Of a stretch of 64,000 bases of DNA, positions 1 to 40,266 are shown piece after piece. Source of the stretch: Candidatus Liptonbacteria bacterium. GTDB taxonomy: Bacteria > Patescibacteriota > Minisyncoccia > UBA6257 > 2-01-FULL-56-20. The stretch is from NCBI GenBank assembly GCA_023244935.1, contig JAHFLJ010000001.1, positions 13,327 to 77,326 of the forward strand. Reading direction: 5' to 3'. The position numbers and the translations under genes are program-made. Numbering within the stretch: position 1 is the first letter of the stretch; the number at the start of each line of letters is the position of its first letter. The notes under the pieces are model-generated. The model was not told where the DNA came from. It worked only from the letters and a program-made list of their open reading frames with translations, and made no database searches.

Positions 1-796
1 CGACAACTCTTTCCGAAGCCGAAAATCCCGGCGAGTCGGAGTTGGTGCTATCGATAAAAATGCTATGAATTTTTTCTTCGGCCAGTCGATAAAAAATATC
101 CAAATTAGTCGGCTTTCCATTGGCATCGATATCCAATCGAAAATCCCCAAAATTAACCATCTTCCCTGCCGGAGTATTTAAAATAAAACCCAGAGCCTCG
201 GGGATGGTGTGTCCCACCGAAAAGAAATCGGCGGTCAAATGTTCCGATATCGGAATCTTGCTACCGTTTTTAACGGTAATGAAATTTAATTTTGGAGCAT
301 TCGGAAATTCCTCGTGTCTCTTCTCCACAATCGCTTTCGTAAACGGAGAAGTCAAAATCGGCGGGTTACCCAACTTCTCGATTAGATAATGAATCGCGGC
401 GATGTGATCGAAGTGGCCGTGAGTCAAAATAATTGCGCGAATATCCTTTTTACGATTTTCGAGAGATGAAACGTTGGGAATAATAAAATCTACTCCGGGG
501 GTTGCCTCTTCCGGAAACTGAATACCGACGTCGACTATTACAATCTCGTTCCCATATTCAAAATAAGAACAGTTTCTTCCGATTTCTTCCAATCCTCCCA
601 GCGGGATAAATTTAAGCTGAACTCCTTCGGAAGGAAGGAATCGCTCGTTATGTTTAGACGTTTGTTTTGTCGGTGCGCGTCTTACCGCACCGTGATGCGC
701 CGATCTTTCTTTTTTTACAAAGCCGGCGGTTCCCGACGCCCTCGAAGTCCTTTGTTGAGGACCGGAAGCGCGAGATCGTGATACATTCTGAATCAT
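1..796 (-). CDS. rnj: ribonuclease J (MBL/beta-CASP), N-terminal ~265 aa; gene runs off the window start
   Basis: Minus-strand ORF from ATG at 794-796. Translation ...LKFIPLGGLEEIGRNCSYFEYGNEIVIVDVG...ILTHGHFDHIAAIHYL matches the RNase J N-terminus and the MBL HxHxDH motif. An unusual ~58-aa basic N-terminal extension precedes it. Confidence 0.75.
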   Translation of the reverse strand, partial: MIQNVSRSRASGPQQRTSRASGTAGFVKKERSAHHGAVRRAPTKQTSKHNERFLPSEGVQLKFIPLGGLEEIGRNCSYFEYGNEIVIVDVGIQFPEEATPGVDFIIPNVSSLENRKKDIRAIILTHGHFDHIAAIHYLIEKLGNPPILTSPFTKAIVEKRHEEFPNAPKLNFITVKNGSKIPISEHLTADFFSVGHTIPEALGFILNTPAGKMVNFGDFRLDIDANGKPTNLDIFYRLAEEKIHSIFIDSTNSDSPGFSASERVV

Positions 797-945
797 TTTT
801 TTATTTGCTTTGGAGTAAAATTGATTAATATTGAGTTTTGACTAAAACAAAATCCAAAGCTATTTATAGAATTTTCGACAAATTCCATTTAGCTGGCGGT
901 GTTTATTCGATTAAATTATTTTAGGAATAAACTATTAACACCATC

Positions 946-1126
946 TGTGGACGAATAAGGAATTGAACCTTTAGACTGCCCTCACGCCAATGCCGTCTTT
1001 GTGCCGCGGGAGAGATTTGAACTCTCATGGTCTTGCGACCGCTGACACCTGAAGCCAGTGCGTCTGCCAGTTTCGCCACCGCGGCATTGGTATAAGGGAT
1101 GAAGCAACCAGCTTCACTACTCGTCC
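946..1126 (-). other. tRNA-like scaffold (acceptor, D-arm, T-arm) enclosing the tRNA-Leu; possible composite or permuted structured RNA
   Basis: Minus strand: 5' GGACGAG-TA-G-TGAA-GCTGGTTGC-TTCA...CCCTT // ...GAGGG-CAGTCT-AAAGG-TTCAATT-CCTTA-TTCGTCC-A-CA 3'. The acceptor (7 bp, one G-U), D-arm, T-loop TTCAATT and a 17-bp helix (983-999 vs 1082-1098) bracket the tRNA-Leu. See findings. Confidence 0.35.
1002..1085 (-). tRNA. tRNA-Leu (anticodon CAG), class II with long variable arm; CCA not encoded
   Basis: Reverse complement reads GCCGCGG-TG-GCG-AAACTGGCAGA-CGC-A-CTGGC-TTCAGGT-GTCAG-CGGTCGCAAGACCATG-GAGAG-TTCAAAT-CTCTC-CCGCGGC-A. It has a perfect 7-bp acceptor, D, anticodon, variable and T arms, and anticodon CAG. 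Confidence 0.85.
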
Positions 1127-1264
1127 GTTTAAATTTACAAATTGTTTCAAGTTATTTCGCCGGCCGATTTCAACCTGCGCGAGACCTACCCTGAATACAC
1201 ACAAAATGGAGAGTTAAACGTTAATCAGATTATACCTGAATCCCCAAAAAACACAACTCCCATA

Positions 1265-1352
1265 TAGAACCTAGAACGTAGAAAGTAGAATTTAGAATGG
1301 AATCAATGCATTATTCTATTTTCTAAATTCTATGTTCTACTTTCTAATTTTT
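1265..1352. repeat. TAGAA-rich palindromic repeat (inverted pair), family also at 9709-9750, 42746-42781 and 62394-62478
   Basis: tagaacgtagaaagtagaatttagaa ... ttctaaattctatgttctactttctaa form an imperfect inverted repeat. The consensus ATTCTAAATTCTATTTTCTAGGTTCTA recurs at 4 intergenic loci. Confidence 0.6.
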
Positions 1353-2990
1353 CTACTTGAACGTCCTCGCCACCTTCACATACCAATTCTTTAACTCTTT
1401 TGCCCTGTCCGAAAAATCTTCCAGATGCACCTCGTTAATCCCCTGAATATCTTTGCTGGTCAAGAATAAATACGGCTGACTATATAAAAATATTGCCGGC
1501 ACGTCCGCGCCAATCAGCCTCAGCAATTCGTTTTGGGCATTGTTCTTATTTTCAAAAGTTAAACTTCCACGAACATCTTCAATCAGTTTATCCACGGTTT
1601 TATTATTATAAATCGAAAGATTTAATCCCGGATAAAACCTTTCCGAAGAATGCCAGAAAGAGAATAAGTCTCCGGATGAATTTACCAAATTTCCAAAAAG
1701 AAGGGCTTGATAATTTCTATTTTTAATCGGCTCCGCCAAAATCTCTTCGGCGGTCGGGGTGGAAAGCCTCACCTCAACTCCAATACTCTTCCAGTCCTCG
1801 GCGATAAGTTCGGCTGTCTTTTTCAAAAAATCTTTTTGCGGAGAAAGGAGCTCAATCTGAAGTTTGACAATTTCTTTTTTATAAGTCTTTTGGCGAATTC
1901 CATCCTCGCCAATCTTCCATCCGGAGTTATCCAAAATCTCCTCGGCTTGGCCTTTGTCATATTTCTGTGAATCCGAGGACTCTCCCGACTCCGGCAGTGG
2001 CCCGGCCTGCTTCTTGCCGTATCCCAAAAGTGCGTCATTTATTATGCGATCTCGATTAACCGCCAAAGAAAGAGCTTCCCTGACCGCCTTATCTTCCAGT
2101 AATTCATTCTGACTTTGATTTAAAAATACTGCGTAATAGTTTGAAAGAGGGAAAGCATGCAAATCATATGTTCTTTTTATTTTGGAAATATCTTCCGGAG
2201 TTACCTGCGGAAGTCCGTCCGATAAACCGGAATTAAAACTATCAATCGCATCTTCTTGTTTTGTAAAAAAGTTCAACGTAACCCTCCCGATAAAAGCCGC
2301 CTTTCCGGAATAGAACTTATTGGGACGAAGTGAATAGCTGGAAATAAAACCATCGTCTCGCTTCTCCATCTCTTCAAAAACATAAGCCCCGGAACCGACC
2401 GGCTTCAGGTTATAATTTGCCAAGCGCCAGTTAGATGCCGGAGTATCCGCAAAAATGTATTTCGGAACCGGATACAAATTGGAAAGATTATCTTCAAAAA
2501 AACCGTATGGCGAAGAAAGATTAAACTGAACTTCCAATTCGCTCACTCGGCTTATCACCACCCCCTGCCAACTGCTAAAAAATGGGGATGAAGTTTGCGG
2601 ATCTTGAATTTTCTGCAATGTAAAAATGATATCGTCGCTAGTCAATTTTTCTCCACTAGACCAAAGCAAACCCTCTTTCAATCTGACCTTCCAAACCTTT
2701 CCGGTTTTATCGCTTTCAATTTTTTCCGCCAAATCGGAAACGGAAGCAAAAGTTAGCCTCGCGATAGTCTTATCCGTAAAGGTGTCCGCAAATAACGGAT
2801 TTATAAATGATGGCTGTCCGACTATTGCCTCCGAATATTCTCCTCCGCTTGCCGGAGCCGGACGAGTATTCTCTCTTACAAATATACCCAAAAGTAACAG
2901 GCCACTGACGGTTAGTGTTCCTAACGTAAGAATGAACGCCAATTTCTCCTTGGAAGAAAAGGCGGAAAATATTTTTTTAAGCCAACTCAT
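1353..2990 (-). CDS. ABC transporter substrate-binding protein, family 5 (Opp/Dpp-like), N-terminal membrane anchor
   Basis: 545-aa ORF with an N-terminal hydrophobic segment. Its overall pattern resembles solute-binding protein family 5 (peptide/nickel). Confidence 0.65.
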   Translation of the reverse strand: MSWLKKIFSAFSSKEKLAFILTLGTLTVSGLLLLGIFVRENTRPAPASGGEYSEAIVGQPSFINPLFADTFTDKTIARLTFASVSDLAEKIESDKTGKVWKVRLKEGLLWSSGEKLTSDDIIFTLQKIQDPQTSSPFFSSWQGVVISRVSELEVQFNLSSPYGFFEDNLSNLYPVPKYIFADTPASNWRLANYNLKPVGSGAYVFEEMEKRDDGFISSYSLRPNKFYSGKAAFIGRVTLNFFTKQEDAIDSFNSGLSDGLPQVTPEDISKIKRTYDLHAFPLSNYYAVFLNQSQNELLEDKAVREALSLAVNRDRIINDALLGYGKKQAGPLPESGESSDSQKYDKGQAEEILDNSGWKIGEDGIRQKTYKKEIVKLQIELLSPQKDFLKKTAELIAEDWKSIGVEVRLSTPTAEEILAEPIKNRNYQALLFGNLVNSSGDLFSFWHSSERFYPGLNLSIYNNKTVDKLIEDVRGSLTFENKNNAQNELLRLIGADVPAIFLYSQPYLFLTSKDIQGINEVHLEDFSDRAKELKNWYVKVARTFK

Positions 2991-5643: not shown

Positions 5644-7164
5644 ATGTATACATATTTAGCAGCCATCGTGGCGCTGGTTTTAGGTTTAGGAATCGGATAC
5701 ATAGTCCGAAAAAAAATAGTAGCTAAACAGCTCGGAAGTCTGGACCAACAACTACAACAAAGAACGTCTGAAGCTGAAAACAAAGCCAAAGAGATTCTTT
5801 TTACCGCCAAAGAAAAAGCCTCGGAGATACTCGAAGAAACCCAGAAAGAAGAAAAAGAAAGAAAACGTGAAATTCTGGCGCTGGAAACAAAGATACACGA
5901 ACGCGAAGAAGCCATCGACAAAAAACTAAATACCCTCGAATACGAATCAAATTCCTTACGAAAAGAACGGGAGGTTATTGAAGGTAAAGTTAAAGAACTC
6001 GAAGAAGTAAAAGAAAAAACAAAAAAGGAACTGGAAAGGATTGGTGGCTTGAGCCGAGACGAAGCCCGCGAAGCATTGTTCACGGAAATAAAAGAAAAAA
6101 GCCGTGACGACCTTGCTCGGACCTCGCAAAAACTGGAAAAAGATCTTCGGGATGAAATCGAGAAAAAAGCTAAGGAAGTTATCACCATAGCCCTTCAACG
6201 CTATGCCCGTTCCCACGTTTCCGAATTAACCACCAGTGTGTTTCACCTCCAAGATGAAGAAATCAAAGGAAAAATTATCGGTCGCGAAGGTAGAAATATT
6301 CGCGCCCTGGAAAGAGCCACCGGTGTAGAATTTATTATGGACGAAACTCCGGACACGATTGTCATTTCTTCATTCGATCCATTCCGACGTGAAGTCGCCA
6401 GTCTCGCCTTAGAAAAACTTATTAAAGACGGCCGAATTCAGCCAGCCAAAGTTGAAGAAAAAGTAGAAGAGGCTAAAGAAGAACTAACCAAAAGAATGTC
6501 GGAAATCGGCGAAGCCGCCGCGATGGAAGTTGGAGTTTATGATTTACCGAAAGAAATCCTCCAACTGCTCGGCCGACTTCACTTCCGAACCAGTTTTGGC
6601 CAGAATGTTTTAACTCACTCGATTGAAATGACTTACCTGGCCGGAATGATTGCCGGAGAACTTGGACTCAATGTTGCCCTTGCGAAGAAAGGCGCGCTGG
6701 TCCACGATATCGGAAAAGCAATTGACCACGAAGTTGAAGGGACCCACGTGGAGCTTGGTATTAAAATCTTGCGCAAATATGGAGTTGGCGAAGACGTTAT
6801 CAACGCCATGCGCTCTCACCACGAAGACTATCCTTATGCATCCCCGGAATCTTTTGTGGTTACCGCCGTTGATGTCCTCTCTGCCGCCAGACCCGGAGCC
6901 AGACGTGGAACAATGGAAAATTATATTAAACGTCTCGGTGACTTGGAAAAAATTGCCGGCGAATTTCCGGGAGTTAAACAAGCCTATGCAATTTCTGCCG
7001 GACGCGAACTCCGAGTATTCGTTACTCCGGAAAAGATTGATGACTTTGGCGCTTTGGAAATGGCTCGCTCAATCGCCAACCGAATTCAATCCGAACTTAA
7101 GTTCCCAGGAGAAATTAAAGTTAATGTCATCCGCGAGACCAGAGCAGTGGAATACGCAAGATAG
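5644..7164 (+). CDS. rny: ribonuclease Y
   Basis: An N-terminal TM helix, a long coiled coil, a KH domain (IGREGRNIRALE) and an HD domain (HDIGKAIDHE) give the classic RNase Y architecture. Confidence 0.9.
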   Translation: MYTYLAAIVALVLGLGIGYIVRKKIVAKQLGSLDQQLQQRTSEAENKAKEILFTAKEKASEILEETQKEEKERKREILALETKIHEREEAIDKKLNTLEYESNSLRKEREVIEGKVKELEEVKEKTKKELERIGGLSRDEAREALFTEIKEKSRDDLARTSQKLEKDLRDEIEKKAKEVITIALQRYARSHVSELTTSVFHLQDEEIKGKIIGREGRNIRALERATGVEFIMDETPDTIVISSFDPFRREVASLALEKLIKDGRIQPAKVEEKVEEAKEELTKRMSEIGEAAAMEVGVYDLPKEILQLLGRLHFRTSFGQNVLTHSIEMTYLAGMIAGELGLNVALAKKGALVHDIGKAIDHEVEGTHVELGIKILRKYGVGEDVINAMRSHHEDYPYASPESFVVTAVDVLSAARPGARRGTMENYIKRLGDLEKIAGEFPGVKQAYAISAGRELRVFVTPEKIDDFGALEMARSIANRIQSELKFPGEIKVNVIRETRAVEYAR

Positions 7165-11615: not shown

Positions 11616-14109
11616 CGCTTTTAAAAACTATTTTTTCGGATTCAATAACCACTCGGACATTACTGCCCTGATATATCTCTTTTCGCAAAATTTTCTGAGC
11701 CAGCTCGGCTCTAAATTTCTCTTCAATTGTCCTTCGGATTGGTCTCGCCCCAAAAGCTCGGTCATATCCGGCTTTAACAATATAAAGAGCCACTGAATCA
11801 TCAAACGATAATTCAATTCCCTGCTCCCCCAATGTCTCTGCCAGCTCGGCAAGTTGTAATTTTGCCACCACCGCCAACTCTTCAATTGAAAGCTCACGAA
11901 AAACCACAACCTTCGAAAAACGATTTATCAATTCCGGCTTAAAAACATCCGTAAGTTTTTTCTTCAAGTATTCGGAAATCTCGGTCATCGACTGTCCTGA
12001 ACCAAGTGCCGTATTAATTATGTCCGAATGAGCATTGGAAGTGGCGATAATAATCGTATTTTGAAAATCAACAACCCTACCCATTCCATCCGTTAGTCTC
12101 CCATCATCCATAACCTGCAAAAACAAATTCAAAATATCCGGATAAGCCTTCTCGAACTCATCCAGCAAAACCAAGCTATAAGGCTTTTCCAAAATCGCAT
12201 CCGTAAGCGCTCCGCGCACTCCTCCGTCAGCTGACCCGATAAATCTCTGGAAACTTTGCTTGTCCTGATATTCGGTCATATCAAATCTAACCATCATATC
12301 TTTGGATCCAAACTGCATTTTAGTAACAATTTTAGCCAGCTCGGTTTTTCCCACGCCGGTCGGCCCAACGAACAAAAAACTTGCGATAGGACCTCCCTTC
12401 CTTGCCAATCCGCTACGATATGCCCGCAACGAATCTCCCACCGCTTTGACGGCTTCTTCCTGATTTATAAATTTCTCATGAACTATTTTTTCAAAATTTA
12501 AAAGTTTTCCGGTTTCATCTTCGTCCGCTTCCTTAACCGGGATGTTAATTCTGGATTCCACCACATCCATAATTTCTTCCGCGGTTAATCTTTTTTTACC
12601 GCCGTCTTTCGCTCTGCCCGCCGCAAGTTTTAAAAGCTCATCCGCACTTGTCGGCAAAAACTTCCCTTTGCTAAAATATTTTTTAGCCAACTTTACGGCA
12701 GTTTTTATTGCGCCAAAACTAACCTCTATTTTCATCTGCTTCTCCAGTAGAATACTTGAAAGAGTCAATACTCGTTCAGCCTCTTCCACGCTGATTTCCT
12801 CAACATTAATACTCTCGAACAACCCGGCAAAGTCACTGTGCGCTTCAATGTCACGCTTCATCTCCCGCGGGTAAGTTGAGCCGATAACCGGAAATCTCCC
12901 GCTCTGAATAATCGGCAGCAACGCGTCCGCAGCCGACATATATGCCGATCCGGAAGTCTTAAGTAAATTGTGAATATCCGGTAAATAAAGAATTATATTT
13001 TCGGCGGAATATATTTCCTCAACAATTTTCTGAATGCGAGACTGAACTTCTTGCGGTTCCGCTCCGGCGATAAGCCTGGACAAATCCACGCCAACCAACC
13101 GCTTGTCAAAAAGTGCCGCCGGAACCTTATCTTTTATGATAGAAAAGGCGATGTGCTTTACTACCGACTCCTTCCCCACGCCGGACTCCCCAATTAAAAG
13201 GGCGTTCGGGCTAACTGATTTTGAAATGGCGTCTATTGTTCTCGCATACTCCTTTTCATGTCCAATTAACAATCCTATCGCTCCTTCTCTCGCCAAATCG
13301 GTATAGTCAATCCCAAAACTATCCAAAAGCGGTGTAGGCCTCGCTGTCCAGGCGCGATTCATAACCCGATGGCGAATTCGTTTATGACCTTCAGGAATCA
13401 TCCCGGACAAAGATAAGGCTCGCGCCCTACGCGACGCCTGAGAAAAAACCATCGCTTGCTCCAAATCTTGTGCAGTGAGTGAAAAAGTTCTAAAAAGTCT
13501 TCCCAACTCCGCATCCGGCGTGAGCGCCAAAGATGAAAAAATGTCGCAAACCAAAATTGATTTATGACCGGAAGAAAAAGCGGTTCTCAAAGCATCGGAT
13601 AACAAAGTCTCCAGCATTCTATATTTTTCTTCCCTGGTTGCCGGAATACTTGATTCCTTCAGCAGAGAAGATAATTTTTGAGAAAATTCATCCGGATCCA
13701 CATCTAGCCTGCGGAGCCCTTCTTCAACCATCTCCGCCTCAAATAAAGATTCTGCCAACTCCAGGTGCAAAGATGTCTGTTTAATAATGCTCCTTTCAAA
13801 AGCCTTCTCGATTAATCGAAAATTTTTCCCGGTTAAATAATCCGCGGAATTGATTTCCTCTTTTTTAGAGGCGTCCATCAGATGCTCGTTCCCCTCTTCT
13901 TTATTTATTAAACGATCAATAATCCCCAAAAATAACAAAACTCCCAAATATCTCAAATTGGAATCTTCGGAAATAACCAGCGCGATGGAAGCAAAAACAA
14001 AAACGATATCCCCAACTATAGCGAACAATCGTACCAAAAATCTTCCCCCATAAGTCATTCTAAGTCTCGGCTCATCCAAATATATTTTAATTGCTTGTCG
14101 TTCTTCCAT
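11608..14109 (-). CDS. Clp/Hsp100 AAA+ unfoldase (ClpC/ClpB-like, two ATPase domains) with predicted N-terminal transmembrane anchor
   Basis: Walker A GESGVGKES (D1) and GPTGVGKT (D2), with sensor motifs. Residues ~20-65 form two hydrophobic helices (FLVRLFAIVGDIVFVFASIALVI...YLGVLLFLGII), unusual for Clp ATPases. Confidence 0.8.
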   Translation of the reverse strand: MEERQAIKIYLDEPRLRMTYGGRFLVRLFAIVGDIVFVFASIALVISEDSNLRYLGVLLFLGIIDRLINKEEGNEHLMDASKKEEINSADYLTGKNFRLIEKAFERSIIKQTSLHLELAESLFEAEMVEEGLRRLDVDPDEFSQKLSSLLKESSIPATREEKYRMLETLLSDALRTAFSSGHKSILVCDIFSSLALTPDAELGRLFRTFSLTAQDLEQAMVFSQASRRARALSLSGMIPEGHKRIRHRVMNRAWTARPTPLLDSFGIDYTDLAREGAIGLLIGHEKEYARTIDAISKSVSPNALLIGESGVGKESVVKHIAFSIIKDKVPAALFDKRLVGVDLSRLIAGAEPQEVQSRIQKIVEEIYSAENIILYLPDIHNLLKTSGSAYMSAADALLPIIQSGRFPVIGSTYPREMKRDIEAHSDFAGLFESINVEEISVEEAERVLTLSSILLEKQMKIEVSFGAIKTAVKLAKKYFSKGKFLPTSADELLKLAAGRAKDGGKKRLTAEEIMDVVESRINIPVKEADEDETGKLLNFEKIVHEKFINQEEAVKAVGDSLRAYRSGLARKGGPIASFLFVGPTGVGKTELAKIVTKMQFGSKDMMVRFDMTEYQDKQSFQRFIGSADGGVRGALTDAILEKPYSLVLLDEFEKAYPDILNLFLQVMDDGRLTDGMGRVVDFQNTIIIATSNAHSDIINTALGSGQSMTEISEYLKKKLTDVFKPELINRFSKVVVFRELSIEELAVVAKLQLAELAETLGEQGIELSFDDSVALYIVKAGYDRAFGARPIRRTIEEKFRAELAQKILRKEIYQGSNVRVVIESEKIVFKSGD

Positions 14110-19342: not shown

Positions 19343-20689
19343 TTATAACACAACCTCCTCGTGACCTTTTGGAACATAAGCGTCCACCGCAAACTCGTCC
19401 CGGAGCTTCTGCGCCAACACTTCGCTCGCGCCTTCTTCACCCTGAATAACAAAAACCTTCTTAAGCGTAGACTTCCTTGGCTCGACCCACTTCAAAAGCT
19501 TCGGCTGATCGGCATGCGCGGAATACGCGCTAATACTTCGAATTTTGCAATTAACCTGGATCGGCTCTCCGAAAATTTTAACCGTCTTTTCGCCGTCGAA
19601 AATTCTTCTGCCCAAAGTTCCTTTGGCCTGATAACCCACAAAAAGAATTGTACTCTTTGGATCGGATAAATATCTCTTCTCGTGGTGAAGAATTCTGCCA
19701 CCGTTCGACATACCGGATCCGGCAATAATTATTTTAGGCGCGGGAACATCATTAATTTCCTTGGATTGTTCTGTTGTTAAAGTTAATCGCAGTCCCGGGA
19801 AATTCAAAATATCTTCTCCGGACTTAACCAGTTTATATGTCTCGGCGTTAAAATATTTCTCATATTTTTTATAGACTGCGGTAATTTTTATCGCTAACGG
19901 GCTATCAATAAATACCGGCACTTTTGGAACACGTCCATGAGTGAATAAATCGTCCATGTGATACAAGAGCTCTTGAGTACGCTCCATTGCAAATGTTGGA
20001 ATCATCAAAACTCCACCATCCTTAACCGCGTCTTCAATTGCATCTTCCAAATCAGCCTCCCGGTTTTCTTCTCTCTCGTGGAATCTGTCGCCGTAAGTTG
20101 ATTCTATCAATAGATAATTCACATCTGGAAGATTTTCGGTGTTGTGGATTATTGGCGCCGGATAATTTCCTAAATCTCCGGAGAATGCCACTGACTTTCC
20201 CTCGGCTTCAACTTTAATAATTGCGGAACCTAAAATATGTCCGGCGTCATAAAGAGTCACTTTAAACGGACCGACTTCAACAGTTTCATGATACGGAACT
20301 CCCTGCCACCTAATCATTACTCTTTCGATATCTTCCACTTCGTAAAGCGGAGGTAGCCCGGCCTTGTCACTTTCCCCTTTTAATACGTGCTGAGAATCAA
20401 TCAACAGTAATTCCGCAAAATCTTTGGTCGGCGGAGTTGAATAGATTGTGCCGACAAAACCGTCATTGACTAATTTCGGCAATCGCCCCACGTGATCAAT
20501 GTGCGCGTGAGTAATAAACACCGCCTGCACCTCGCTCGGATTATATTGAAAATCCTCAAAATTACTTTTTTCCACAAAACTCCCTCCCTGCTCCAATCCG
20601 CAATCAATTAAAATTTTAGAATCACCGGACTCCAAAAGATAATTAGCCCCAGTTACGCTCCCTGCTCCTCCGTGAAAAGTTAGTTTCAT
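19343..20689 (-). CDS. MBL-fold metallo-hydrolase, beta-CASP RNA-metabolising nuclease
   Basis: HAHIDHVGRLP (HxHxDH), ~450 aa, with beta-CASP motifs. An extended -10 (TGGTATAAT on the minus strand) lies at 20712-20722. Confidence 0.75.
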   Translation of the reverse strand: MKLTFHGGAGSVTGANYLLESGDSKILIDCGLEQGGSFVEKSNFEDFQYNPSEVQAVFITHAHIDHVGRLPKLVNDGFVGTIYSTPPTKDFAELLLIDSQHVLKGESDKAGLPPLYEVEDIERVMIRWQGVPYHETVEVGPFKVTLYDAGHILGSAIIKVEAEGKSVAFSGDLGNYPAPIIHNTENLPDVNYLLIESTYGDRFHEREENREADLEDAIEDAVKDGGVLMIPTFAMERTQELLYHMDDLFTHGRVPKVPVFIDSPLAIKITAVYKKYEKYFNAETYKLVKSGEDILNFPGLRLTLTTEQSKEINDVPAPKIIIAGSGMSNGGRILHHEKRYLSDPKSTILFVGYQAKGTLGRRIFDGEKTVKIFGEPIQVNCKIRSISAYSAHADQPKLLKWVEPRKSTLKKVFVIQGEEGASEVLAQKLRDEFAVDAYVPKGHEEVVL

Positions 20690-29409: not shown

Positions 29410-32400
29410 ATGCCAACAGAAAGAAAAATTGTCGGACAGGACGGACTATCGGAAGGCGAAAAAAAGGAACAAGAACGACAAATTCGCAAAATCAAGCAAG
29501 CTAGAAACTTCGACGAGCTTGCTGATGCCATGTCGGGAACAAAATTTGAAGACAGCATCAAAAATATTAAATTCGCGGGCAAAAGTGTCCGCGCCTTTAT
29601 CGATACGGATGGCCTGCGAAGAGATTATCTCGACCATGCAAACATCCTTCTGACGGAAAATACTGCCTTCCAAATACATATTAAAATGGGAGACCCAGTT
29701 GCTCTTGCAATTCTAAACCAAGGCAGAGAAATTCTTGAAAATGCCAAAAACACCGAAAAGGAGTCTCTCGATCTTCCGGATCCGACCGAAGAACCGGAAT
29801 CGCCCGAAACCTCTCCTATAGACGAAGAAACGGCGCCGGTGCAAGAGCCAATCCCCAATACTAGCGCCCCGGAACCAATAATTTCGGAAGTGGTTGGAGC
29901 CAACCCTCCGTCATCTCGAAGCGCCGAAAAAAGTGACCTGCCAAAAACCCTCGAAGACTACATACGCTTTACCGATAATCTGAGCGGACTCAGCGAGATC
30001 CTATCTGCTTACGGGGAAAAAGAAAACCGAGAAAAAATAACAAACATACTCACTAAGCTAATTTCAGCCGAATCCAAAGCAGAAGAAAGAAAAAATATAG
30101 CCGAAAATATCCAGGAGATTAGAAATCTTTTGTCGGATCTCGATAGCCCGCTGAAAGAAAAAGCTACCGAACTCGTAAAAAACGACCTGGCAAGAATTAT
30201 TGGGATTGATTTAGATGCTCCAGAAACATCCTCCTCTTCTGGAAACAACACAAATGAGAACACCCCTTCCCTGCCGGAAAAAATGAATGAAGATCCGCGT
30301 TTTTTAAGATTAGTGAATGACTTCAGCAAAAAATATTTTTTAGTAGATAACCCTAACTTTTCCAAAGAATTCTCCGGGGCTGTCTCCGTAAATGGACATA
30401 TGATGAGTGCGGACGGAAAAGAAACAAATTTTTTACCGAGTCAGATTATTGGAGTGGAAAGCTATCATACGGCACTCAAGGAAGCAGCAAAAAGATTTAA
30501 AGAATTATACCCGGAAGACTCTCAAGAATATGAAAAACGAAAAGAACCGGAGCTCATAATCTCGGGCATAGCCGGTGCAGCAGCTGAAAACATCTCTGCT
30601 CCTGAAAAGAAAATAACCGCCGAGGAGTTGAAAGAGAAAATAGTAGGGGCAAAATCTCTTGCCGAGCTCGCGGACACGCTAGAAAAACTAGAAGAAATCC
30701 CTACATCCTCCGGAGACTACACAAAAACCATGCCACTTGCCGTTTTATTGCGGGATACTAAAAATTTTGCATACATTGCCCCCGAAGCGATTAAAAGCAA
30801 GGTTGATAATTTTTGGAATCTATATCAAGACCGATTCACAAGGCAGGGAGGACTAAGAGAGAAAGTTTACTCCTTATTATCAGCCATCCTCGAAAACCCA
30901 GAGGCTCACGAAGAATCAAATGGTGCAGAAACTAACGAAATGTCAAAACCCGAGATGCGGTTTACGGGGATAGAAGATTTAAACATCGAAGCGAAAAATA
31001 AACCTATCCGGCCATTTCCGGATGCAGAACAGGCCCCTCCAAGGTTTACAGATATAGAAGAAAGCCCGCTAGATCGCGAAGCGGTTGAGGGCGAAATTGA
31101 ATCAACCATTGAAGAGGTTCTATCCGAACCGGCGACCCTAGAAGCTGCGACCGAAGCAATGTCTCCAGAATCAACTTCCGAAGAAAAACAAAAAATAAAA
31201 GAGGTGTTGAGCTCTCCTGATGCGAAAGAATCACTTATGAAACGGATTAAAAAACAAATGCGCGACCCGGCTTTTTGGCGCGACCTGGCAATCGGAACCG
31301 CGGCAGGAGGCACAACCAGAATGGTGGTCAGAAACTCAATTCGCTTTGCTCTTGGTCCGAACATCTTAGTTGGAATTGCAGCCGGAGGAATAGCCGGAGG
31401 TCTTGGAGCGGGAGTGGTTGAATTAATAAAAGAAAAAAGAATGATGCTCGGAACCGGCGCCTTGGAAAAACTTAAAAACGCTACCGACAACCTCGAAAGG
31501 GCAAAAATCTACGGCGAACTGAAGCGAATCTACGGCGAGAAAAAGATCTCAGGAACCGCGGAAGAAATCGAAGCGATAAACCAGGAGCTAATCCAAACCG
31601 AAACGATTCTAAAAACTGCACTGGAAACAAAGGACTTAGAAGGAAAAGATAAAATTTCGGCAATTCTTAAGATATCGGATGATTCCCGCGAAAGTCTTTC
31701 GAAAGAAGAACGGAAAGAAGTCAAAAAACTACTAAAAGAAATTAAATTTGAACGCGGGCCGGCAGATTGGAAAAAAATCAGCAAGTGCGCAACGAAAGGC
31801 GCCATAATGGGATCCATTGGTGGCGCGCTTGGAGGAGCCTTATCTTCGTGGCTATCCGGCAACTTAAATGGCGGAAACGCAACTGAGAAAGCCCTCGAGA
31901 AGGCTTCAGCGGCAAAAAAGGCAGCTGGGGAACTCTGGAATGAAAGATATGAAGCATGGAAATCAATGAAAGAACCGATATCTCGGGCTCAGGAAGTAGT
32001 ACGCGAGACAACGACATCAACGAGAGACAGTCTTTCCTCGAAATTCTTTGCAGTCACCACCGAGAAAGGTGAAGGCGTAACCCACTTGGCCAGAAAAGCG
32101 ATACATGAATATCTAGCAAATGACACCAAGCTAAATGGGACTCTAGGCAATACAATGAACACCGAAAAACTAGTTTATGCCGAAGACTACCTGCAAAAAC
32201 AACTCACCCCGCTGAATGCGCCGACCCTCCATCCCGGAGATTCATTCCAGATTGAAGGAAATAAAATAGCCGAGGCTCTCGAAAAAGCAGGTGTCTTAAA
32301 CGAAGAGCAAATAAGTTCGGTTGCCAAGGTAATTGAAAGTAATGGGGGCCTATCCGAAGAATCAAAAATGTTTATCTCTAACCCGGGGTTTGGCGTTCTC

Positions 32401-33285
32401 GACCCACAGAATGACTTTGTTGAAGCAATAAGCAAAAATACACCGGTAATATCCGAAGAAATTAACACTAGGATAGCTGAAGGTAGTGCAAAACAAGTAG
32501 CAGAAAATGCAGTTTCTGATATAAAAGAAGATTATGAGTATTTGTCCAAGGTAGAGAAGGGATGGTCTAATAAGCTCGGAAGTAGATTGTTCGAAGCGCA
32601 ACTCATAGATGGCGTTGTATCCTCGGGAATTGCACTGCCCGCAAGCGCGATAGCATTGTTTAGTAACCCGATAGACGAATATGATAGTTATGAAAAACAA
32701 GATCCTCTCGAAAAAGCTAAGGGGCTCGAAGATAAGTATGGTGTGACCCTGGAACATGGCGATGACCAGGAACTCACGAGTGAATCCGTCACAAAACTTG
32801 AGGGAATATTAGAAGAATTATCCGCTCAGTCCGATATTACCGGCCTGACGTTTATACATGCGAGCAATATTGATAGCGGTCTAATAGTAGATGATTATGG
32901 TCAAATTTTGGTTGACGTCGAAAATTATAATGAAGTCAAACCCGGCGCAATCCAAGAAGCGAAAGATAAAACAGCGAAAATGAAAGAACTGGATATTTTT
33001 ATAAGGAGTAAGAAGGCTGAAATTATAAAAATGGCCGGTAAATCTCCGATGTTCGAATTAATAGCGGATGAAAAATTAACAATAGATGAAACAAAAAAAC
33101 AGGCAGAGGCGGTGTTTTCGGCAGTACAAGAAGCTCTGGCTCAAGGAATTAAATTAAAAACAAAAAATATTATTATTTCTGATTACTATGACACAGCTAA
33201 AGGAGGAGCTAAGTTCGGTGTATGGATAAATCAAAACAGCAAAAAAGAAGAAATTGTCGAATTTCTTAAAAAAACATTCGCTTAA
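29410..33285 (+). CDS. giant hypothetical protein (1291 aa), acidic with coiled coils and two glycine-zipper hydrophobic segments
   Basis: The ORF starts 3 nt after the trpS stop. I recognise no catalytic motif. GxxxG zippers (LVGIAAGGIAGGLGAGVV; GAIMGSIGGALGGALSSWL) lie mid-protein, alongside Glu/Lys-rich low-complexity segments. Confidence 0.5.
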   Translation: MPTERKIVGQDGLSEGEKKEQERQIRKIKQARNFDELADAMSGTKFEDSIKNIKFAGKSVRAFIDTDGLRRDYLDHANILLTENTAFQIHIKMGDPVALAILNQGREILENAKNTEKESLDLPDPTEEPESPETSPIDEETAPVQEPIPNTSAPEPIISEVVGANPPSSRSAEKSDLPKTLEDYIRFTDNLSGLSEILSAYGEKENREKITNILTKLISAESKAEERKNIAENIQEIRNLLSDLDSPLKEKATELVKNDLARIIGIDLDAPETSSSSGNNTNENTPSLPEKMNEDPRFLRLVNDFSKKYFLVDNPNFSKEFSGAVSVNGHMMSADGKETNFLPSQIIGVESYHTALKEAAKRFKELYPEDSQEYEKRKEPELIISGIAGAAAENISAPEKKITAEELKEKIVGAKSLAELADTLEKLEEIPTSSGDYTKTMPLAVLLRDTKNFAYIAPEAIKSKVDNFWNLYQDRFTRQGGLREKVYSLLSAILENPEAHEESNGAETNEMSKPEMRFTGIEDLNIEAKNKPIRPFPDAEQAPPRFTDIEESPLDREAVEGEIESTIEEVLSEPATLEAATEAMSPESTSEEKQKIKEVLSSPDAKESLMKRIKKQMRDPAFWRDLAIGTAAGGTTRMVVRNSIRFALGPNILVGIAAGGIAGGLGAGVVELIKEKRMMLGTGALEKLKNATDNLERAKIYGELKRIYGEKKISGTAEEIEAINQELIQTETILKTALETKDLEGKDKISAILKISDDSRESLSKEERKEVKKLLKEIKFERGPADWKKISKCATKGAIMGSIGGALGGALSSWLSGNLNGGNATEKALEKASAAKKAAGELWNERYEAWKSMKEPISRAQEVVRETTTSTRDSLSSKFFAVTTEKGEGVTHLARKAIHEYLANDTKLNGTLGNTMNTEKLVYAEDYLQKQLTPLNAPTLHPGDSFQIEGNKIAEALEKAGVLNEEQISSVAKVIESNGGLSEESKMFISNPGFGVLDPQNDFVEAISKNTPVISEEINTRIAEGSAKQVAENAVSDIKEDYEYLSKVEKGWSNKLGSRLFEAQLIDGVVSSGIALPASAIALFSNPIDEYDSYEKQDPLEKAKGLEDKYGVTLEHGDDQELTSESVTKLEGILEELSAQSDITGLTFIHASNIDSGLIVDDYGQILVDVENYNEVKPGAIQEAKDKTAKMKELDIFIRSKKAEIIKMAGKSPMFELIADEKLTIDETKKQAEAVFSAVQEALAQGIKLKTKNIIISDYYDTAKGGAKFGVWINQNSKKEEIVEFLKKTFA

Positions 33286-33681: not shown

Positions 33682-36600
33682 CTAGCTTTTTCGTATTGCC
33701 AGCCAAATCACGCCATCATCAACTTTGATCTCGGTTTCAGTTAAGAATTTAGGCTCTTTTTTGAATATTATTTTTGTCGCCCCGGTCTCCTTCAATATGA
33801 ACTTCTGCCACCTCTCTAGAATTCCGGATGTCATCGGTGTCGAGGCAATCATAAGCAAAACCTTGTTCGAAGGCTTCAGCTCGGCTTTTTGTCTTAACTC
33901 CGAGACTCCCCGAATTAGTTCGCGAACCAAGCCTTCTTCTCGAAGCTCATCGGATATCTCTTTATTCAATTCAACTTTTTCACCTATCTCCTTTTTCAAG
34001 GAAATAGCTTTTACATTAACTTCATCCATAATAATCGACATCAGCTCTTCATATTTGGAAAGTAATTTATATGCGTTCTCTCCCAAATATAAATCTGCTA
34101 AAGGCTGCCTGACTTTCAAGGCGGAGCTAGCTCTTTCGGCAAGCGCCAAACTGGAAACATTCCTCGCCTGTTCCATGGCCGAAACAAATTCCAATTCTTT
34201 AGAAGTTATAGGTTTAAATTTATCCCAATCCGCCAAGTGAACCGAGGATTCCAATTTTATTCCTGAATATTTTTTAACGGCTCCAAATATTGCTTCGGAA
34301 AAGAACGGGATAAACGGCGCGGATAATTTTGTAAGTGAAATCAAAACTTTTTCCAATGTTGCCGACGCCTCCAAATATTCTTGCTTAGTTTCCGGCTTCT
34401 GCAGTCTTCTTCGAGATCTGCGAATATACCATCTGGAAAGGTCATCAACAAATGCTTCGAGCGCCAAAGCGGCTTCACGCACATCATACTTCTCCATATT
34501 TTCACTAACCGAATTCCCGGTCTGAGACAACCGCATCAAAATCCACTTATCCAAAACATTCTTGGATTGTTTTACCGATCGCGAGGCCCCGCCTTTTGCA
34601 TAGGTGCGATAGAAAACAAAGGAATTGTAATACAATAAGTGAAATTTCCTGTATACCTTAAGCAATTCCGCCTCGTCAAAATTTTTTGACTCCCCCGGCG
34701 GATTAACCACGTAAAAATACCATCTAATTGCATCCATCCCATACTTGTCCGCCAGCGCCCAAGGATCAACGATATTCCCTTTGGATTTACTCATCTTTAC
34801 TCCGTTCTTGTCGTTAATTAATCCCAAACAGATTACGTTTCGATATGGCGCCTCGTGCCCAAGCAGAGTTGAAGTTGCCAACATGGTATAGAACCATCCC
34901 CTGGTCTGATCCATTGCCTCGGAAATATAATCCGCCGGAAACTCCAATTTTTTCATCAGTTTGTTCGCGTCGGTGAGTGAAACGTTTTTACCGCCGGAAT
35001 ACTTAAACGGAAAATGATTTTGCGCATACGGCATGGCCCCCGAGTCAAACCAAACATCTGCCACCTCTTTCACTCGATTCGCTCGCCCTCCGCACTTATC
35101 GCACTTTAGAATAATTTCGTCGACGTAAGGTTTGTGCAAGTCCAACTCGCCTGAACGATTTATCGGCAATGAATAAAACTTTTCTTTCCTGATTTCTCCA
35201 AATCCATATTCTTTCGCGGTTACAAATTGTTTTATCGGCAAACCGTTCATCCCCAGGCTCAAAGTTAAAAGCGGGTCTCCGTGACTAACAATAACAATTT
35301 TTTGGTCCTTGTGCCGTGAATTTATTTCTTTAATAAATTCCATCATTCGTCGCGAAACATCAAAGACGCTTTCTCCTCCGGGAGGAGTTTTCGTAAGCCT
35401 CTCCTCTCCTTGTCCATGAAATTCCCGATACTCTTTTATCGGACGCCAGTTAAACACGCCGGTGTTTATTTCAGTCAACCGATTATCAAAGATTATTTCT
35501 GCGCCGGTTGCCGAACTTATTTCTCGAGCCAACTGCGAAGTCCTGGTCATCGGCGATGCGTAAATTACATCTATTTTCTCTTTATTCAATTTGCCTGCGG
35601 TTTTTTTAGCTTGTAACTCTCCTCTCTTGGTTAGAGGCGCGATATTCTTGCCGACCTCTATCCCGCTAGCAACAAATCCACCGACATTACTTTCCGCTTC
35701 GGTGTGACGCACCAAATAAAACGAATTCTTATAATAATCATTTTCTTTTATCTCGCTAACCGCTCCAATAACTTTTATCGCCGAGCAATCACCGCACCGC
35801 CAAATCGGGAGCGGAGTTCCCCAATATCGCTCACGAGAAATATTCCAATCTTTTGCCTCTTTCAGCCACTCGCCAAACCGCCCTTCTTTAATATGCTCCG
35901 GCACCCAAGCTATTTTTTCATTCTCCGCGGAAAGCTTACTTCGCAAACGACTAACCTCCAAAAACCAAGAACGGCGCGCGAAATATATTAGAGGAGAACC
36001 ACACCTCCAACAAAATGGATATTCGTGCTCGATTTTTCCGGAAGAGAACATCAACCCACGATTAACTAAATCCGCAGAGATATCCGCATCAGCTTCCTTA
36101 ATAAACTTTCCCTCCCCGGGAAGTCCGGCAATCACTTTTCCCTCATCGTTGATTGTTGTGAGTAATTCAATATCCGGATAATGCTCAGCAACCAACTGGA
36201 AATCCTCTTCTCCAAACGCCGGCGCAATATGAACAAACCCGGTTCCGTCTTCAGTGGAAATAAACCCTGCCGGCAAAACTTTAAACATTTTTTGGACATC
36301 TTGTCCGGCGACTTCAAATAGGGGCTTATATGAAAGACCTACCAATTTACTTCCGGAAATTTTTTCCACCGCCTCGGCAAAAATTTCTTTTCCGTTTTTA
36401 TCTTGAGTTGTCGGCGGAACACTATATGACCAAATATAGTCTCCTCCTACTTTATATTTTGTGTAAGTCAAATCCGCGCCAACCGCCACGAACATATTCG
36501 AAGGCAACGTCCACGGAGTTGTCGTCCAAATTAAAATGTATTCATTCTTATGCCCGGCATCCAAAACCTTCAACTTCACATAAACCGAAGGATCCGGAAC

Positions 36601-37203
36601 TTTTTTATAAACTCCCGGCTGAGCAATCTCGTGACTTGCCAGAGCCGTCTGACAACGAGAGCAATATGGAATAACCTTTCGCTTCTCTTTCAAAAATCCC
36701 CTATCGGCAATTGCCTTAAAAACCCACCACAAACTTTCGATGTAACTATTTTCATAGGTTACATACGGGTTCTTCATATCTAGCCAATATCCCATTCTTT
36801 CGGTTAATCTCTCCCACTCATCTTTGTATTTCCAGACAGACTCTTTTGCTTTTTCGTTAAACAAATTAATCCCGAACTTTTCCAAATCCCGCTTATTTTT
36901 TATTCCCAATTCTTTCTCTATTCCTACTTCAACTGGGAGGCCATGAGTATCCCAACCGGCGCGTCGCGGGACATAAAACCCGCGCATAGTTTTGTAGCGC
37001 AGAATTATGTCCTTAAAAGACCTAGCTAAAACGTGGTGAATTCCCGGTTGCCCGTTGGCTGTCGGCGGACCTTCATAAAAAACAAATTCTTTTTTGCCCT
37101 TTCGCTTCGATAAACTTTTCTCGAAAATTTTGTCTCGTTTCCAGAATTCTAAAACCTTTTTTTCAACTTCGGGTAGGCTAAATTCGGTGTTTTCGTTAAG
37201 CAT
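33682..37203 (-). CDS. ileS: isoleucine--tRNA ligase with an internal histidine-phosphatase (PGM-family) domain insertion
   Basis: HIGH (PPTANGQPGIHH), KMSKS, zinc knuckles CxxC (CSRCQ, WRCGDC, CDKCGG) and the anticodon-binding region are present. 1173 aa. Residues ~490-685 (LVRHTEAESN...PPGGES...VIVSHGD) form a histidine phosphatase fold between the two Zn knuckles. Confidence 0.9.
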   Translation of the reverse strand: MLNENTEFSLPEVEKKVLEFWKRDKIFEKSLSKRKGKKEFVFYEGPPTANGQPGIHHVLARSFKDIILRYKTMRGFYVPRRAGWDTHGLPVEVGIEKELGIKNKRDLEKFGINLFNEKAKESVWKYKDEWERLTERMGYWLDMKNPYVTYENSYIESLWWVFKAIADRGFLKEKRKVIPYCSRCQTALASHEIAQPGVYKKVPDPSVYVKLKVLDAGHKNEYILIWTTTPWTLPSNMFVAVGADLTYTKYKVGGDYIWSYSVPPTTQDKNGKEIFAEAVEKISGSKLVGLSYKPLFEVAGQDVQKMFKVLPAGFISTEDGTGFVHIAPAFGEEDFQLVAEHYPDIELLTTINDEGKVIAGLPGEGKFIKEADADISADLVNRGLMFSSGKIEHEYPFCWRCGSPLIYFARRSWFLEVSRLRSKLSAENEKIAWVPEHIKEGRFGEWLKEAKDWNISRERYWGTPLPIWRCGDCSAIKVIGAVSEIKENDYYKNSFYLVRHTEAESNVGGFVASGIEVGKNIAPLTKRGELQAKKTAGKLNKEKIDVIYASPMTRTSQLAREISSATGAEIIFDNRLTEINTGVFNWRPIKEYREFHGQGEERLTKTPPGGESVFDVSRRMMEFIKEINSRHKDQKIVIVSHGDPLLTLSLGMNGLPIKQFVTAKEYGFGEIRKEKFYSLPINRSGELDLHKPYVDEIILKCDKCGGRANRVKEVADVWFDSGAMPYAQNHFPFKYSGGKNVSLTDANKLMKKLEFPADYISEAMDQTRGWFYTMLATSTLLGHEAPYRNVICLGLINDKNGVKMSKSKGNIVDPWALADKYGMDAIRWYFYVVNPPGESKNFDEAELLKVYRKFHLLYYNSFVFYRTYAKGGASRSVKQSKNVLDKWILMRLSQTGNSVSENMEKYDVREAALALEAFVDDLSRWYIRRSRRRLQKPETKQEYLEASATLEKVLISLTKLSAPFIPFFSEAIFGAVKKYSGIKLESSVHLADWDKFKPITSKELEFVSAMEQARNVSSLALAERASSALKVRQPLADLYLGENAYKLLSKYEELMSIIMDEVNVKAISLKKEIGEKVELNKEISDELREEGLVRELIRGVSELRQKAELKPSNKVLLMIASTPMTSGILERWQKFILKETGATKIIFKKEPKFLTETEIKVDDGVIWLAIRKS

Positions 37204-39895: not shown

Positions 39896-40263
39896 GGGGA
39901 TGATGGGCTTCGCCGAGAGACGGAGAGCTTCCCTGCGAGCCGAGCGCAATCTCGCAAATCTTGCACAAACTACTAACTGCCAACTTTAAAGTTGCAGCTC
40001 CTGCCTACGCCTACGCGTAACGCACGGGGATCTCCTGCCTGATTTATCACGCAAGAGGATCGGCTAGCCTTTGCCCTTTGGGTTAATACCGGTCTTATAT
40101 AAAAGGACTACTTCGCGAAGAGGCGACACGACTCTCGCGGATAAAAAATCGTGTCGTCCTGATCAAAAATCAGAACCGTTTCAAATTTATTTTTGAAACT
40201 ACGCTCGTAGACGGGCTGTCTTTGCCCCTTTCGCACGAGGGTTCAACTCCCTCCATCTCCACA
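39896..40263 (+). ncRNA. ssrA: tmRNA (SsrA)
   Basis: 5' GGGGATGATGGGCTTCGCC...GCGAGCCGAG... and 3' GGACGAGGGTTCAACTCCCTCCATCTCC-ACA are clearly alignable to Bacillus-type tmRNA. The tag ORF GCC AAC TTT AAA GTT GCA GCT CCT GCC TAC GCC TAC GCG TAA (39979-40020) gives ANFKVAAPAYAYA. The promoter TTGTCA-17-TATTAT ends 8 nt before the 5' G. Confidence 0.85.
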
Positions 40264-40266
40264 AAC

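Follow-up and report, generated by a model that had tools for sequence, protein, structure and literature searches.

A tRNA-Leu gene carried within a conserved, anticodon-less tRNA-shaped shell in Patescibacteria

In the 64,000-nucleotide (nt) stretch of DNA analyzed here (hereafter the window; positions 13,327 to 77,326 of contig JAHFLJ010000001.1 of a Candidatus Liptonbacteria bacterium), which is a chromosomal segment from the Patescibacteria (Candidate Phyla Radiation, CPR), a gene for tRNA-Leu(CAG) is enclosed by flanking sequences that fold together into a second body with the shape of a tRNA. This outer body, referred to as the shell, has no anticodon, ends in a purine discriminator and carries the tRNA-Leu by means of a helix of 8-13 base pairs (bp), helix H, at the place of its anticodon arm. 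The nested arrangement is real and beyond chance, and the composite of shell and inner tRNA is a real RNA gene under selection. Taken as a whole, we propose with moderate confidence that it would be best explained as a selected composite gene of older tRNA-Leu origin, in which the shell acts as a scaffold that is itself processed like a tRNA.

The inner element is called by ARAGORN as tRNA-Leu(CAG) at 1001-1085 of the minus strand, and Rfam family RF00005 matches 1002-1085 with 48.5 bits against a gathering score of 29 (48.5-49.8 bits for the inner tRNAs of relatives), which bears out the tRNA-Leu(CAG) that an initial annotation, made from the sequence, had placed at 1002-1085. The same annotation had paired the flanks into an outer acceptor stem, and the seven pairs out of seven, one of them G-U, are indeed present in the sequence. 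Its outer D arm stands as regards the GG loop but not the 4-bp stem, the element being a hairpin of 5-7 bp; likewise, the T arm does possess the canonical TTCAATT loop, but the first pair of its stem is an A.A mismatch in the window, where relatives have a proper pair. The proposed 17-bp bracketing helix with one mismatch is also found in the window, in which 16 of its 17 positions are paired, two of these as G-U, and the remaining one is an A.C mismatch. Within it, 12 of the 13 positions of helix H are paired outside the inner tRNA, and the last four pairs make use of GCCG of the inner acceptor stem (1082-1085). The minimum-free-energy fold of 944-1126 (183 nt) recovers the shell with z = -5.15, and none of 200 shuffled sequences folds as well. 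In addition, once the inner tRNA had been removed in silico, 82 of the 576 splice constructs derived from the window had their joined flanks called a tRNA by ARAGORN, compared with 0/576 for each of three outgroup loci and with none for all 40 shuffles of the window flanks; joined flanks are called a tRNA in six of the seven nested variants described below. On the intact locus the shell was detected neither by the intron mode nor by the low-threshold mode of ARAGORN, and an Rfam search of the composite returned nothing beyond the inner tRNA, even at E <= 10 for the window and E <= 1 for the relatives.

The strongest evidence comes from relatives, which were obtained as contigs encoding homologs of the SBP_bac_5 peptide-binding protein (SBP) whose gene lies upstream of the composite, in independent NCBI, ENA, JGI and Logan assemblies. 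All loci with SBP homologs at 76-90% protein identity, where long enough, carry both the tRNA-Leu(CAG) at the same site and the shell (contigs P0005 and P0008 stop short of the tRNA region and contribute no locus). They amount to seven distinct versions, namely the window, L001, L003/L004, L019/L020, L006, L007 and L009-L013, and the order SBP gene, composite RNA and RNase J gene is identical in all of them. The six further variants keep all four helices of the shell, in support of the earlier proposal that the tRNA-Leu sits where an outer tRNA-like molecule would have its anticodon loop. Comparison of orthologous loci, which had been put forward as a way to look for compensation, revealed many compensatory substitutions in these six variants. 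In a stem-register alignment of the seven sequences, which was registered by hand, checked against the real sequences and freed of two single-nucleotide bulges, standard pairs occupy 94.8% of the 210 pair cells and only 47-52% when the partners are slid; both sides have changed in 11 of the 30 shell pairs (three in the acceptor stem, two in the D stem, four in helix H and two in the T stem), and the covariation score was reached by 0 of 500 column shuffles.

Each helix contributes to this result, and several pairs have changed more than once within both subclades. In the acceptor stem, found for example as GGACGAG/TTCGTCC, GGGCAAA/TTTGCCC and GGGCAAG/CTTGTCC, all paired, pairs 3:70, 5:68 and 7:66 change on both sides, the last being G.U, G-C or A-U. 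Changes on both sides also affect pairs 49:65 and 51:63 of the T stem (AAGGG/CCCTT or GAAGG/CCTTC, both paired), and the D helix, paired in 100% of the cells (GTGAA/TTCAT and GTGGG/CCTAC are examples), has covarying pairs at RNAalifold consensus columns 18-30, 19-29 and 20-28. Helix H retains a core of 8-9 bp in every variant, with 90% of the cells paired and 4 of 13 pairs changing on both sides. An unedited MAFFT alignment submitted to RNAalifold gave an independent prediction, which comprises the acceptor stem of the shell, its T arm, a D hairpin of 7 bp and the inner cloverleaf, and each variant folded singly gives the same architecture. The DNA around the element is unalignable among the variants, except for an AT-rich motif directly upstream. 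The coordinates of all elements in the window are collected in Table 1.

Table 1. Elements of the composite RNA gene and other features located in the window
Feature	Position	Strand	Remarks
Whole composite (shell and inner tRNA)	946-1126	-	Order on the minus strand: GGACGAG-TA-GTGAAGC-TGGTT-GCTTCAT-CCCTTATACCAAT-[tRNA-Leu]-CAAAGACGGC-ATTGGCGTGAGGG-CAGTCT-AAAGG-TTCAATT-CCTTA-TTCGTCC-A-CA
AT-rich promoter-like motif TTGTAAATTTAAAC	1127-1140	-	-10-like TAAATT ends 5 nt before shell G1
Shell acceptor stem, 5' strand GGACGAG	1120-1126	-	Pairs 7/7 with 949-955, one G-U
Shell linker TA	1118-1119	-	
Shell D-type hairpin GTGAAGC-TGGTT-GCTTCAT	1099-1117	-	Stem of 5-7 bp, conserved UGG loop
Helix H, 5' strand CCCTTATACCAAT	1086-1098	-	Bracketing helix; reaches position -1 of the inner tRNA
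Inner tRNA-Leu(CAG)	1002-1085	-	Class II; CCA not encoded; discriminator A at 1002; nearly invariant in relatives
Trailer of the inner tRNA CAAAGACGGC	992-1001	-	Unpaired
Helix H, 3' strand ATTGGCGTGAGGG	979-991	-	Partner of 1086-1098
Shell linker CAGTCT	973-978	-	Position of the variable region; 6-12 nt in relatives, not conserved
Shell T arm AAAGG-TTCAATT-CCTTA	956-972	-	T loop TTCRAWT in all variants
Shell acceptor stem, 3' strand TTCGTCC	949-955	-	
Shell discriminator A (948), then CA (946-947)	946-948	-	
Hairpin directly 3' of the shell, 5' of the RNase J gene	891-945	-	Fold of 797-947(-), z = -3.17
SBP_bac_5 peptide-binding protein gene	1353-2990	-	Upstream synteny anchor; Pfam, homologs
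RNase J gene, N-terminal part	1-796	-	Downstream synteny anchor, runs off the window; translation; orthologs carry Lactamase_B/RNase_J domains
tmRNA, canonical	39896-40264	+	ARAGORN and Rfam; unusual tag ANFKVAAPAYAYA

More distant relatives, with an SBP about 52% identical (L014, L015 and L016/L017), share the gene order of the nested loci, with a tRNA-Leu(CAG) in the corresponding place; the flanks of three outgroup loci lack a T-loop motif and acceptor pairing and contain no part that ARAGORN could assemble. Since these distant relatives have a plain tRNA-Leu devoid of a shell, the shell is a derived feature of one small clade. Its halves are closer to the L014-type tRNA-Leu(CAG), which occupies this locus in one outgroup, than to the inner tRNA: at the 5' end, the L019 shell agrees with the L014 tRNA-Leu over its first 19 nt (19/19, compared with 12-16 of 19 in the other shells), and 17-18 of 25 positions match in the 3' part. 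A degenerate pattern comprising the shell T arm, the acceptor 3' strand and CA found tRNA-Leu in 65 of the 103 matches inside called tRNAs, among the matches listed. These likenesses suggest that the shell consists of the remains of an older tRNA-Leu gene at this locus, inside which a second tRNA-Leu(CAG) arrived; in the simplest history, the inner gene would be of an L015-like GCCGNGG type, and the acceptor, D and T parts of the resident would have been kept for a new purpose. In fact, just upstream of the intact tRNA-Leu(CAG), at a distance of about 25-45 nt (around 5818-5840), L016/L017 harbor a second, incomplete D-arm region of tRNA-Leu (TTTGGCGGAAACTGGAAGACGCA), which indicates that the locus is prone to such events.

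The resemblance to L014-type tRNA-Leu and the partial duplications in L016/L017 also speak for another history, in which a tRNA-Leu was inserted into, or partly duplicated around, another and left a non-functional relic with decaying flanks, possibly held in a tRNA-like state by gene conversion from an intact paralog located elsewhere in the genome. We consider such a relic quite improbable, because in both subclades eleven pairs have changed with compensation amid intergenic DNA that is unalignable, and because helix H, which belongs to no tRNA, covaries nevertheless. Furthermore, the absence of U8, the Watson-Crick pair at 14:21, the 7-bp D hairpin and the linker of 1-2 nt are not features that a functional donor tRNA would have supplied.

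Compared with a canonical tRNA, the shell has the 7-bp acceptor stem, a T arm with a TTCRAnY loop and the GG of the D loop, and it departs from it in two regions. The first is the D domain, in which U8, A14, the 4-bp D stem and the 2-nt linker of positions 8-9 are all missing as conserved features: position 8 may be U, A or G, with U8 lost in three variants, the linker measures 1-2 nt, and 14:21 and 15:20 are covarying Watson-Crick pairs, which turn the D element into a hairpin of 5-7 bp capped by UGGU(U). The additional D pairs probably stand in for the U8-A14 and 15-48 tertiary layers, and would still place the GG so as to dock on the T loop. The second is the anticodon stem-loop, of which the conserved 7-nt loop, U33, purine 37 and the anticodon are lacking, the region being occupied by a continuous covarying helix. 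For this reason the shell is no decoding tRNA, and the earlier picture of an outer tRNA-like molecule has to be refined, as what stands at the anticodon-loop place is a helix that covaries. Several registers were tried in the search for a hidden anticodon loop and none is conserved, the segment YTAYACYRAT differing among variants and covarying with the opposite strand.

It might still be supposed that the outer element is a cryptic decoding tRNA with the tRNA-Leu as its 'intron', whose excision, followed by ligation of the exons, would restore an anticodon loop. Interrupted tRNA genes are frequent in Patescibacteria and are overlooked by annotation tools (PMC13011429), and the artificially spliced constructs are called tRNA by ARAGORN. 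Yet no splice register yields a conserved 7-nt loop with U33 and purine 37, the candidate positions differ (ATACC versus ACACT or ACACC) and covary as a helix with the opposite strand, and the loop left after excision would measure 10-16 nt without conservation; moreover, the insert of 107-112 nt matches neither a group I intron nor any other Rfam family and has no bulge-helix-bulge motif, and the intron mode of ARAGORN finds nothing. Such a cryptic tRNA is thus very improbable. Regarding a possible aminoacylation of the shell, three variants have A as discriminator and the other four have G, with switches between close relatives, and pair 3:70 is A-U, A.C, G-C or G.U. This variation makes the shell a probable non-substrate of any one particular synthetase. 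The identity elements are A73 for leucine and G3:U70 for alanine, and an identity for LeuRS or AlaRS (leucyl- and alanyl-tRNA synthetase) was set aside as both 3:70 and the discriminator vary.

The explanation that we favor is that the shell represents a natural counterpart of the engineered tRNA scaffold of Ponchon and Dardel, in which the anticodon stem-loop is turned into an insert-bearing hairpin and the acceptor, T and D arms are kept (PMC3753655). That construct is described as recognized by cellular factors of E. coli and as protecting the inserted RNA (PMC3753655). In the composite, transcription would start at or beside G1 of the shell (1126), from the conserved AT-rich motif, giving a single transcript that would fold into the shell and the inner cloverleaf. 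The ends of the shell would be matured by RNase Z and the CCA-adding enzyme, and also by RNase P if a leader is present, and the shell, with a compact fold that would resist nucleases, would shield and present the inner precursor. Cleavage by RNase P at 1085/1086 and by RNase Z after 1002 would then release the tRNA-Leu, and a two-piece tRNA-like RNA (about 41 nt plus about 57 nt with CCA), joined by helix H and the acceptor stem, would remain. Across the variants, this two-piece remnant is predicted to cofold at -31 to -44 kcal/mol.

The features conserved in the shell are the acceptor/T minihelix, the D/T elbow, a purine discriminator with CA after it and the lack of an encoded CCA. These are what the enzymes RNase P, RNase Z and CCA-adding enzyme recognize, and none of the three is known to need an anticodon arm. 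As the shell keeps both the minihelix and the elbow that are read by these end-processing enzymes, ends of tRNA type would be made on it. In fact, a CA directly follows the discriminator in 7/7 shells, in all inner tRNAs, in three outgroup tRNA-Leu genes and in the tmRNA (transfer-messenger RNA) of the window, and this common feature suggests that the 3' end of the shell is made like the 3' end of a tRNA. The initial annotation had likened the outer 3' end to that of a processed RNA and noted the ending TCC-A-CA in common with the tmRNA gene; both remarks agree with these data, the tmRNA ending in ...CATCTCC-A-CA. The only constraints visible in the shell are of a processing type, given that the discriminator may be A or G, 3:70 and the linkers vary, and U8 is dispensable. 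The inner trailer, of 10-16 nt and unpaired, is unconserved among the variants apart from the CA right after the discriminator, and such a trailer fits access by RNase Z.

As to transcription, the promoter-like motif TTGTAAATTTAAAC is present directly 5' of the shell in 7/7 nested variants. A similar AT-rich motif lies directly 5' of the plain tRNA-Leu in the outgroup L016, and is less clear in L014 and L015. A simple sigma-70 scan made no call on the motif; from its sequence, it is a putative promoter. Directly after the SBP stop codon, an imperfect AT-rich hairpin of about 93 nt (1262-1354, minus strand; fold z = -2.96) is followed by GTTGTGTTTTTTGGGG. This hairpin may terminate the SBP transcript, and the end of the latter at this point would fit a composite RNA with a promoter of its own. 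Hairpin-capable sequence after the shell, as judged by eye, is also found in relatives.

Several points weigh against this explanation as a whole. In most variants helix H pairs the inner 5' leader as far as position -1, a possible obstacle to bacterial RNase P; in the case of MALAT1/mascRNA, however, leader-trailer pairing that extends the acceptor stem is compatible with RNase P cleavage (PMC8457004). The outgroups keep this tRNA-Leu without a shell, so that the benefit of a scaffold is not evident, and the proposed tRNA-Leu origin draws on short similarities. The counts for pairs and for helix H depend on a manual register, only seven variants from one narrow clade are available, and the composite is known here from its sequence and predicted folds. 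In the species representatives of GTDB, the inner tRNA pattern occurs in a single metagenome-assembled genome, CAZTBQ010000005.1 (the same as L004), which is labelled Candidatus Saccharibacteria.

Because the outgroups do without the shell, two alternatives have to be taken seriously, one being a function of the shell itself and the other a gating by helix H. According to the first, the functional product would be the shell, as a two-piece, CCA-tailed, anticodon-less tRNA-like RNA that acts outside decoding, and the inner tRNA-Leu would be merely co-expressed; the shell could then serve as aminoacyl carrier for a non-ribosomal transferase, or as decoy or ligand for a protein or an RNA that reads tRNA elbows. 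Selection acts on every element of tRNA shape, the GG and T loops among them, although a mere spacer could do without these loops; a stable two-piece remnant is predicted, and the shell is kept in all seven lineages even though a simple deletion would remove it. On the other hand, the switch of the discriminator between A and G and the variable 3:70 mean that no single synthetase identity set is conserved, and no evident partner gene of the shell is found among the neighboring genes examined. We regard this alternative as possible but rather unlikely. A similarly limited likelihood is given to the proposition that RNase P and RNase Z form an excision system that cuts a tRNA out of a tRNA-shaped RNA and leaves behind a split tRNA-like molecule with a cellular role of its own.

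In the second alternative, helix H and the pairing of GCCG with CGGC would sequester the 5' leader and acceptor stem of the tRNA-Leu and thereby delay or gate cleavage by RNase P, the composite being a stored or regulated precursor. Helix H does reach position -1 of the inner tRNA in most variants, and CGGC at 992-995 can pair alternatively with GCCG at 1082-1085. The window subclade has, therefore, two mutually exclusive folds, the 17-bp helix and the tRNA-Leu acceptor stem, and in the four variants that can invade the first 4 acceptor nucleotides the minimum-free-energy folds choose the 17-bp form. However, the 4-bp extension into GCCG is possible only in this one subclade (window, L001, L003 and L019), in which the trailer reads CGG(C/T); it is absent in L006, L007 and L009, where helix H measures 8-9 bp, and positions -1 and -2 are unpaired in L009. 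Consequently, of the helix proposed in the initial annotation, the overlap with the inner acceptor stem does not hold as a conserved feature. Control of maturation would also leave the conserved acceptor stem, D hairpin and T arm of the shell unexplained, and we consider it unlikely.

With respect to known systems, the scaffold interpretation meets its closest likeness in the engineered construct, as in both the acceptor, T and D arms are kept and a helix with a passenger RNA replaces the anticodon stem-loop. The shell differs in being natural and evolutionarily conserved, in having a tRNA as passenger, in its extended D hairpin and in the dispensable U8. Since the passenger is itself a tRNA, it should be excised by the same enzymes. 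A correspondence in end processing and nuclease protection may be drawn by analogy, from indirect signs, which are the promoter-like motif preceding the 5' end of the shell and the CA that follows its discriminator. A synthetic origin was dismissed, as the inner acceptor stem accounts for the two SacII sites (CCGCGG) and natural variation of the locus is seen across samples.

Disrupted tRNA genes constitute a second point of comparison. Group I introns interrupt tRNA genes in Patescibacteria and cyanobacteria (PMC13011429), and in archaea disruption takes the form of bulge-helix-bulge introns and of split and permuted tRNAs (PMC4033280). These genes share with the composite a foreign RNA at the anticodon-arm place, the group I cases occur in the same phylum, and in each the outer gene is missed by standard tRNA finders. 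The composite, in contrast, has neither a ribozyme core nor a bulge-helix-bulge, and its insert is a complete tRNA. As the shell retains no anticodon, ligation of exons is neither needed nor predicted. A group I intron in a tRNA gene is a self-splicing ribozyme core, usually >200 nt, placed in the anticodon loop. It was rejected here since the insert of 107-112 nt is a tRNA with short flanks and gives no Rfam match at E <= 10. The bulge-helix-bulge motif consists of a 3-nt bulge, a 4-bp helix and a 3-nt bulge at the exon-intron borders and goes with a splicing endonuclease; helix H runs continuously up to position -1 without paired bulges, and the host is a bacterium with tmRNA, RNase Y and RNase J, so that an archaeal intron or split tRNA was likewise discarded.

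The tRNA-like domain of tmRNA, also in its two-piece form, consists of an acceptor stem, a T arm and, where a tRNA has its anticodon arm, a long helix, and comes with G3:U70, a tag reading frame and pseudoknots. Common to tmRNA and shell are the acceptor stem and T arm, the helix enclosing another functional module and the possibility of a two-chain mature form; the shell differs by its variable 3:70, its true D hairpin and the absence of a tag reading frame and pseudoknots. A tmRNA domain was excluded given the variable 3:70, the absence of a tmRNA match at the locus and the presence of a tmRNA elsewhere in the window. That gene has a sigma-70-like TTGTCA-17-TATTAT 8 nt upstream, does not encode CCA and ends in CATCTCC-A-CAA. 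YrlA and other bacterial Y RNAs possess a Ro(Rsr)-binding stem formed by the 5' and 3' ends, a tRNA-like module inside and an rsr gene nearby. In YrlA as in mascRNA/MALAT1 (PMC8457004), a tRNA-like fold is joined to a helix of flanking sequence, whereas in the composite a true tRNA lies inside and the mimic outside, with free acceptor ends. A Y RNA was therefore rejected, the topology being reversed and an Rfam match lacking; no TROVE/Rsr domain was seen among the 25 window open reading frames (ORFs) scanned. An RNase III-type leader-trailer helix was likewise set aside, as only 8-9 bp are available in some variants, and so was an att-site remnant of an integrative element, because selection at the level of sequence would not yield compensatory pairs.

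Among the matches listed, the degenerate shell 3' pattern found no further nested loci in metagenome contigs, but ordinary tRNAs, tRNA 3'-end fragments and other tRNA-free matches. An exact 20-mer of the shell D arm had no match in genome contigs, neither the 22-mer of the shell T arm and acceptor nor the inner tRNA pattern had a match in viral contigs, and blastn against phages matched only the inner tRNA-Leu part. Five metagenome contigs of high G+C (L035, L076, L107, L136 and L138) contain a 3'-terminal tRNA-Leu fragment, GGTTCAAATCCCTCCTCGCCCACA, with no full tRNA called, preceded by a conserved promoter-like CTTGACG-17-TATGGT and a conserved segment beginning with ATGAAATCCCCGAATCGGGGATTTC. 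Judging by its sequence, the fragment resembles an att site left behind by an integrated element, and a small leaderless ORF seems to read into it.

The SBP gene and the RNase J gene (start 796) flank the composite and share its strand; among named homologs of the SBP, the best come from Parcubacteria, Liptonbacteria and Paceibacterota. The neighbors of the composite in the window are housekeeping genes, encoding SBP_bac_5, phosphoglycerate mutase, RNase Y, RNase J, aminoacyl-tRNA synthetases, FtsK, RuvB, a penicillin-binding protein and DnaN. Besides the RNase J beside the composite, there is a second metallo-beta-lactamase ribonuclease with beta-CASP/RMMBL domains (448 amino acids; 19343-20689, minus strand), which might bear on how RNA 3' ends are processed in this organism. 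A class I aminoacyl-tRNA synthetase of 1173 amino acids (33682-37203, minus strand), similar to isoleucyl-tRNA synthetase, bears a His_Phos_1 (histidine-phosphatase) domain inserted in its catalytic domain, and the same architecture was recorded for orthologs in the outgroup loci L014, L016 and L017. Directly 3' of a gene for a class I synthetase of Trp/Tyr type, an ORF of 1291 amino acids (29410-33285, plus strand) has no Pfam match at E <= 1e-5.

The structure of the shell is well supported and the distribution seen so far is narrow. Full-text literature searches on nested, split or disrupted tRNA genes in Patescibacteria and on natural tRNA scaffolds provided no natural precedent: what was found are group I introns of Patescibacteria (PMC13011429), reviews on archaeal and eukaryotic disrupted tRNAs (e.g. 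PMC4033280) and papers on engineered scaffolds. Likewise, no family of Rfam 15 covers the shell, and such shells are wholly overlooked by tRNA finders and Rfam. If expressed as predicted, the composite would represent the first tRNA found in nature within a tRNA-like scaffold and would extend the disrupted tRNA architectures (intron-containing, split and permuted) by a bacterial type, and evolution would have arrived at the design used by RNA engineers for stabilizing recombinant RNAs. Should the excision system with its split, functional product be real, it would define a new class of bacterial 'disrupted tRNA' gene together with a new small RNA in CPR bacteria. In either case the composite offers a defined substrate for the choice of RNase P and RNase Z between two nested tRNA shapes, and it bears both on the role of an anticodon-less, two-piece tRNA-like RNA and on the replacement of tRNA genes in genomes as reduced as those of Patescibacteria.

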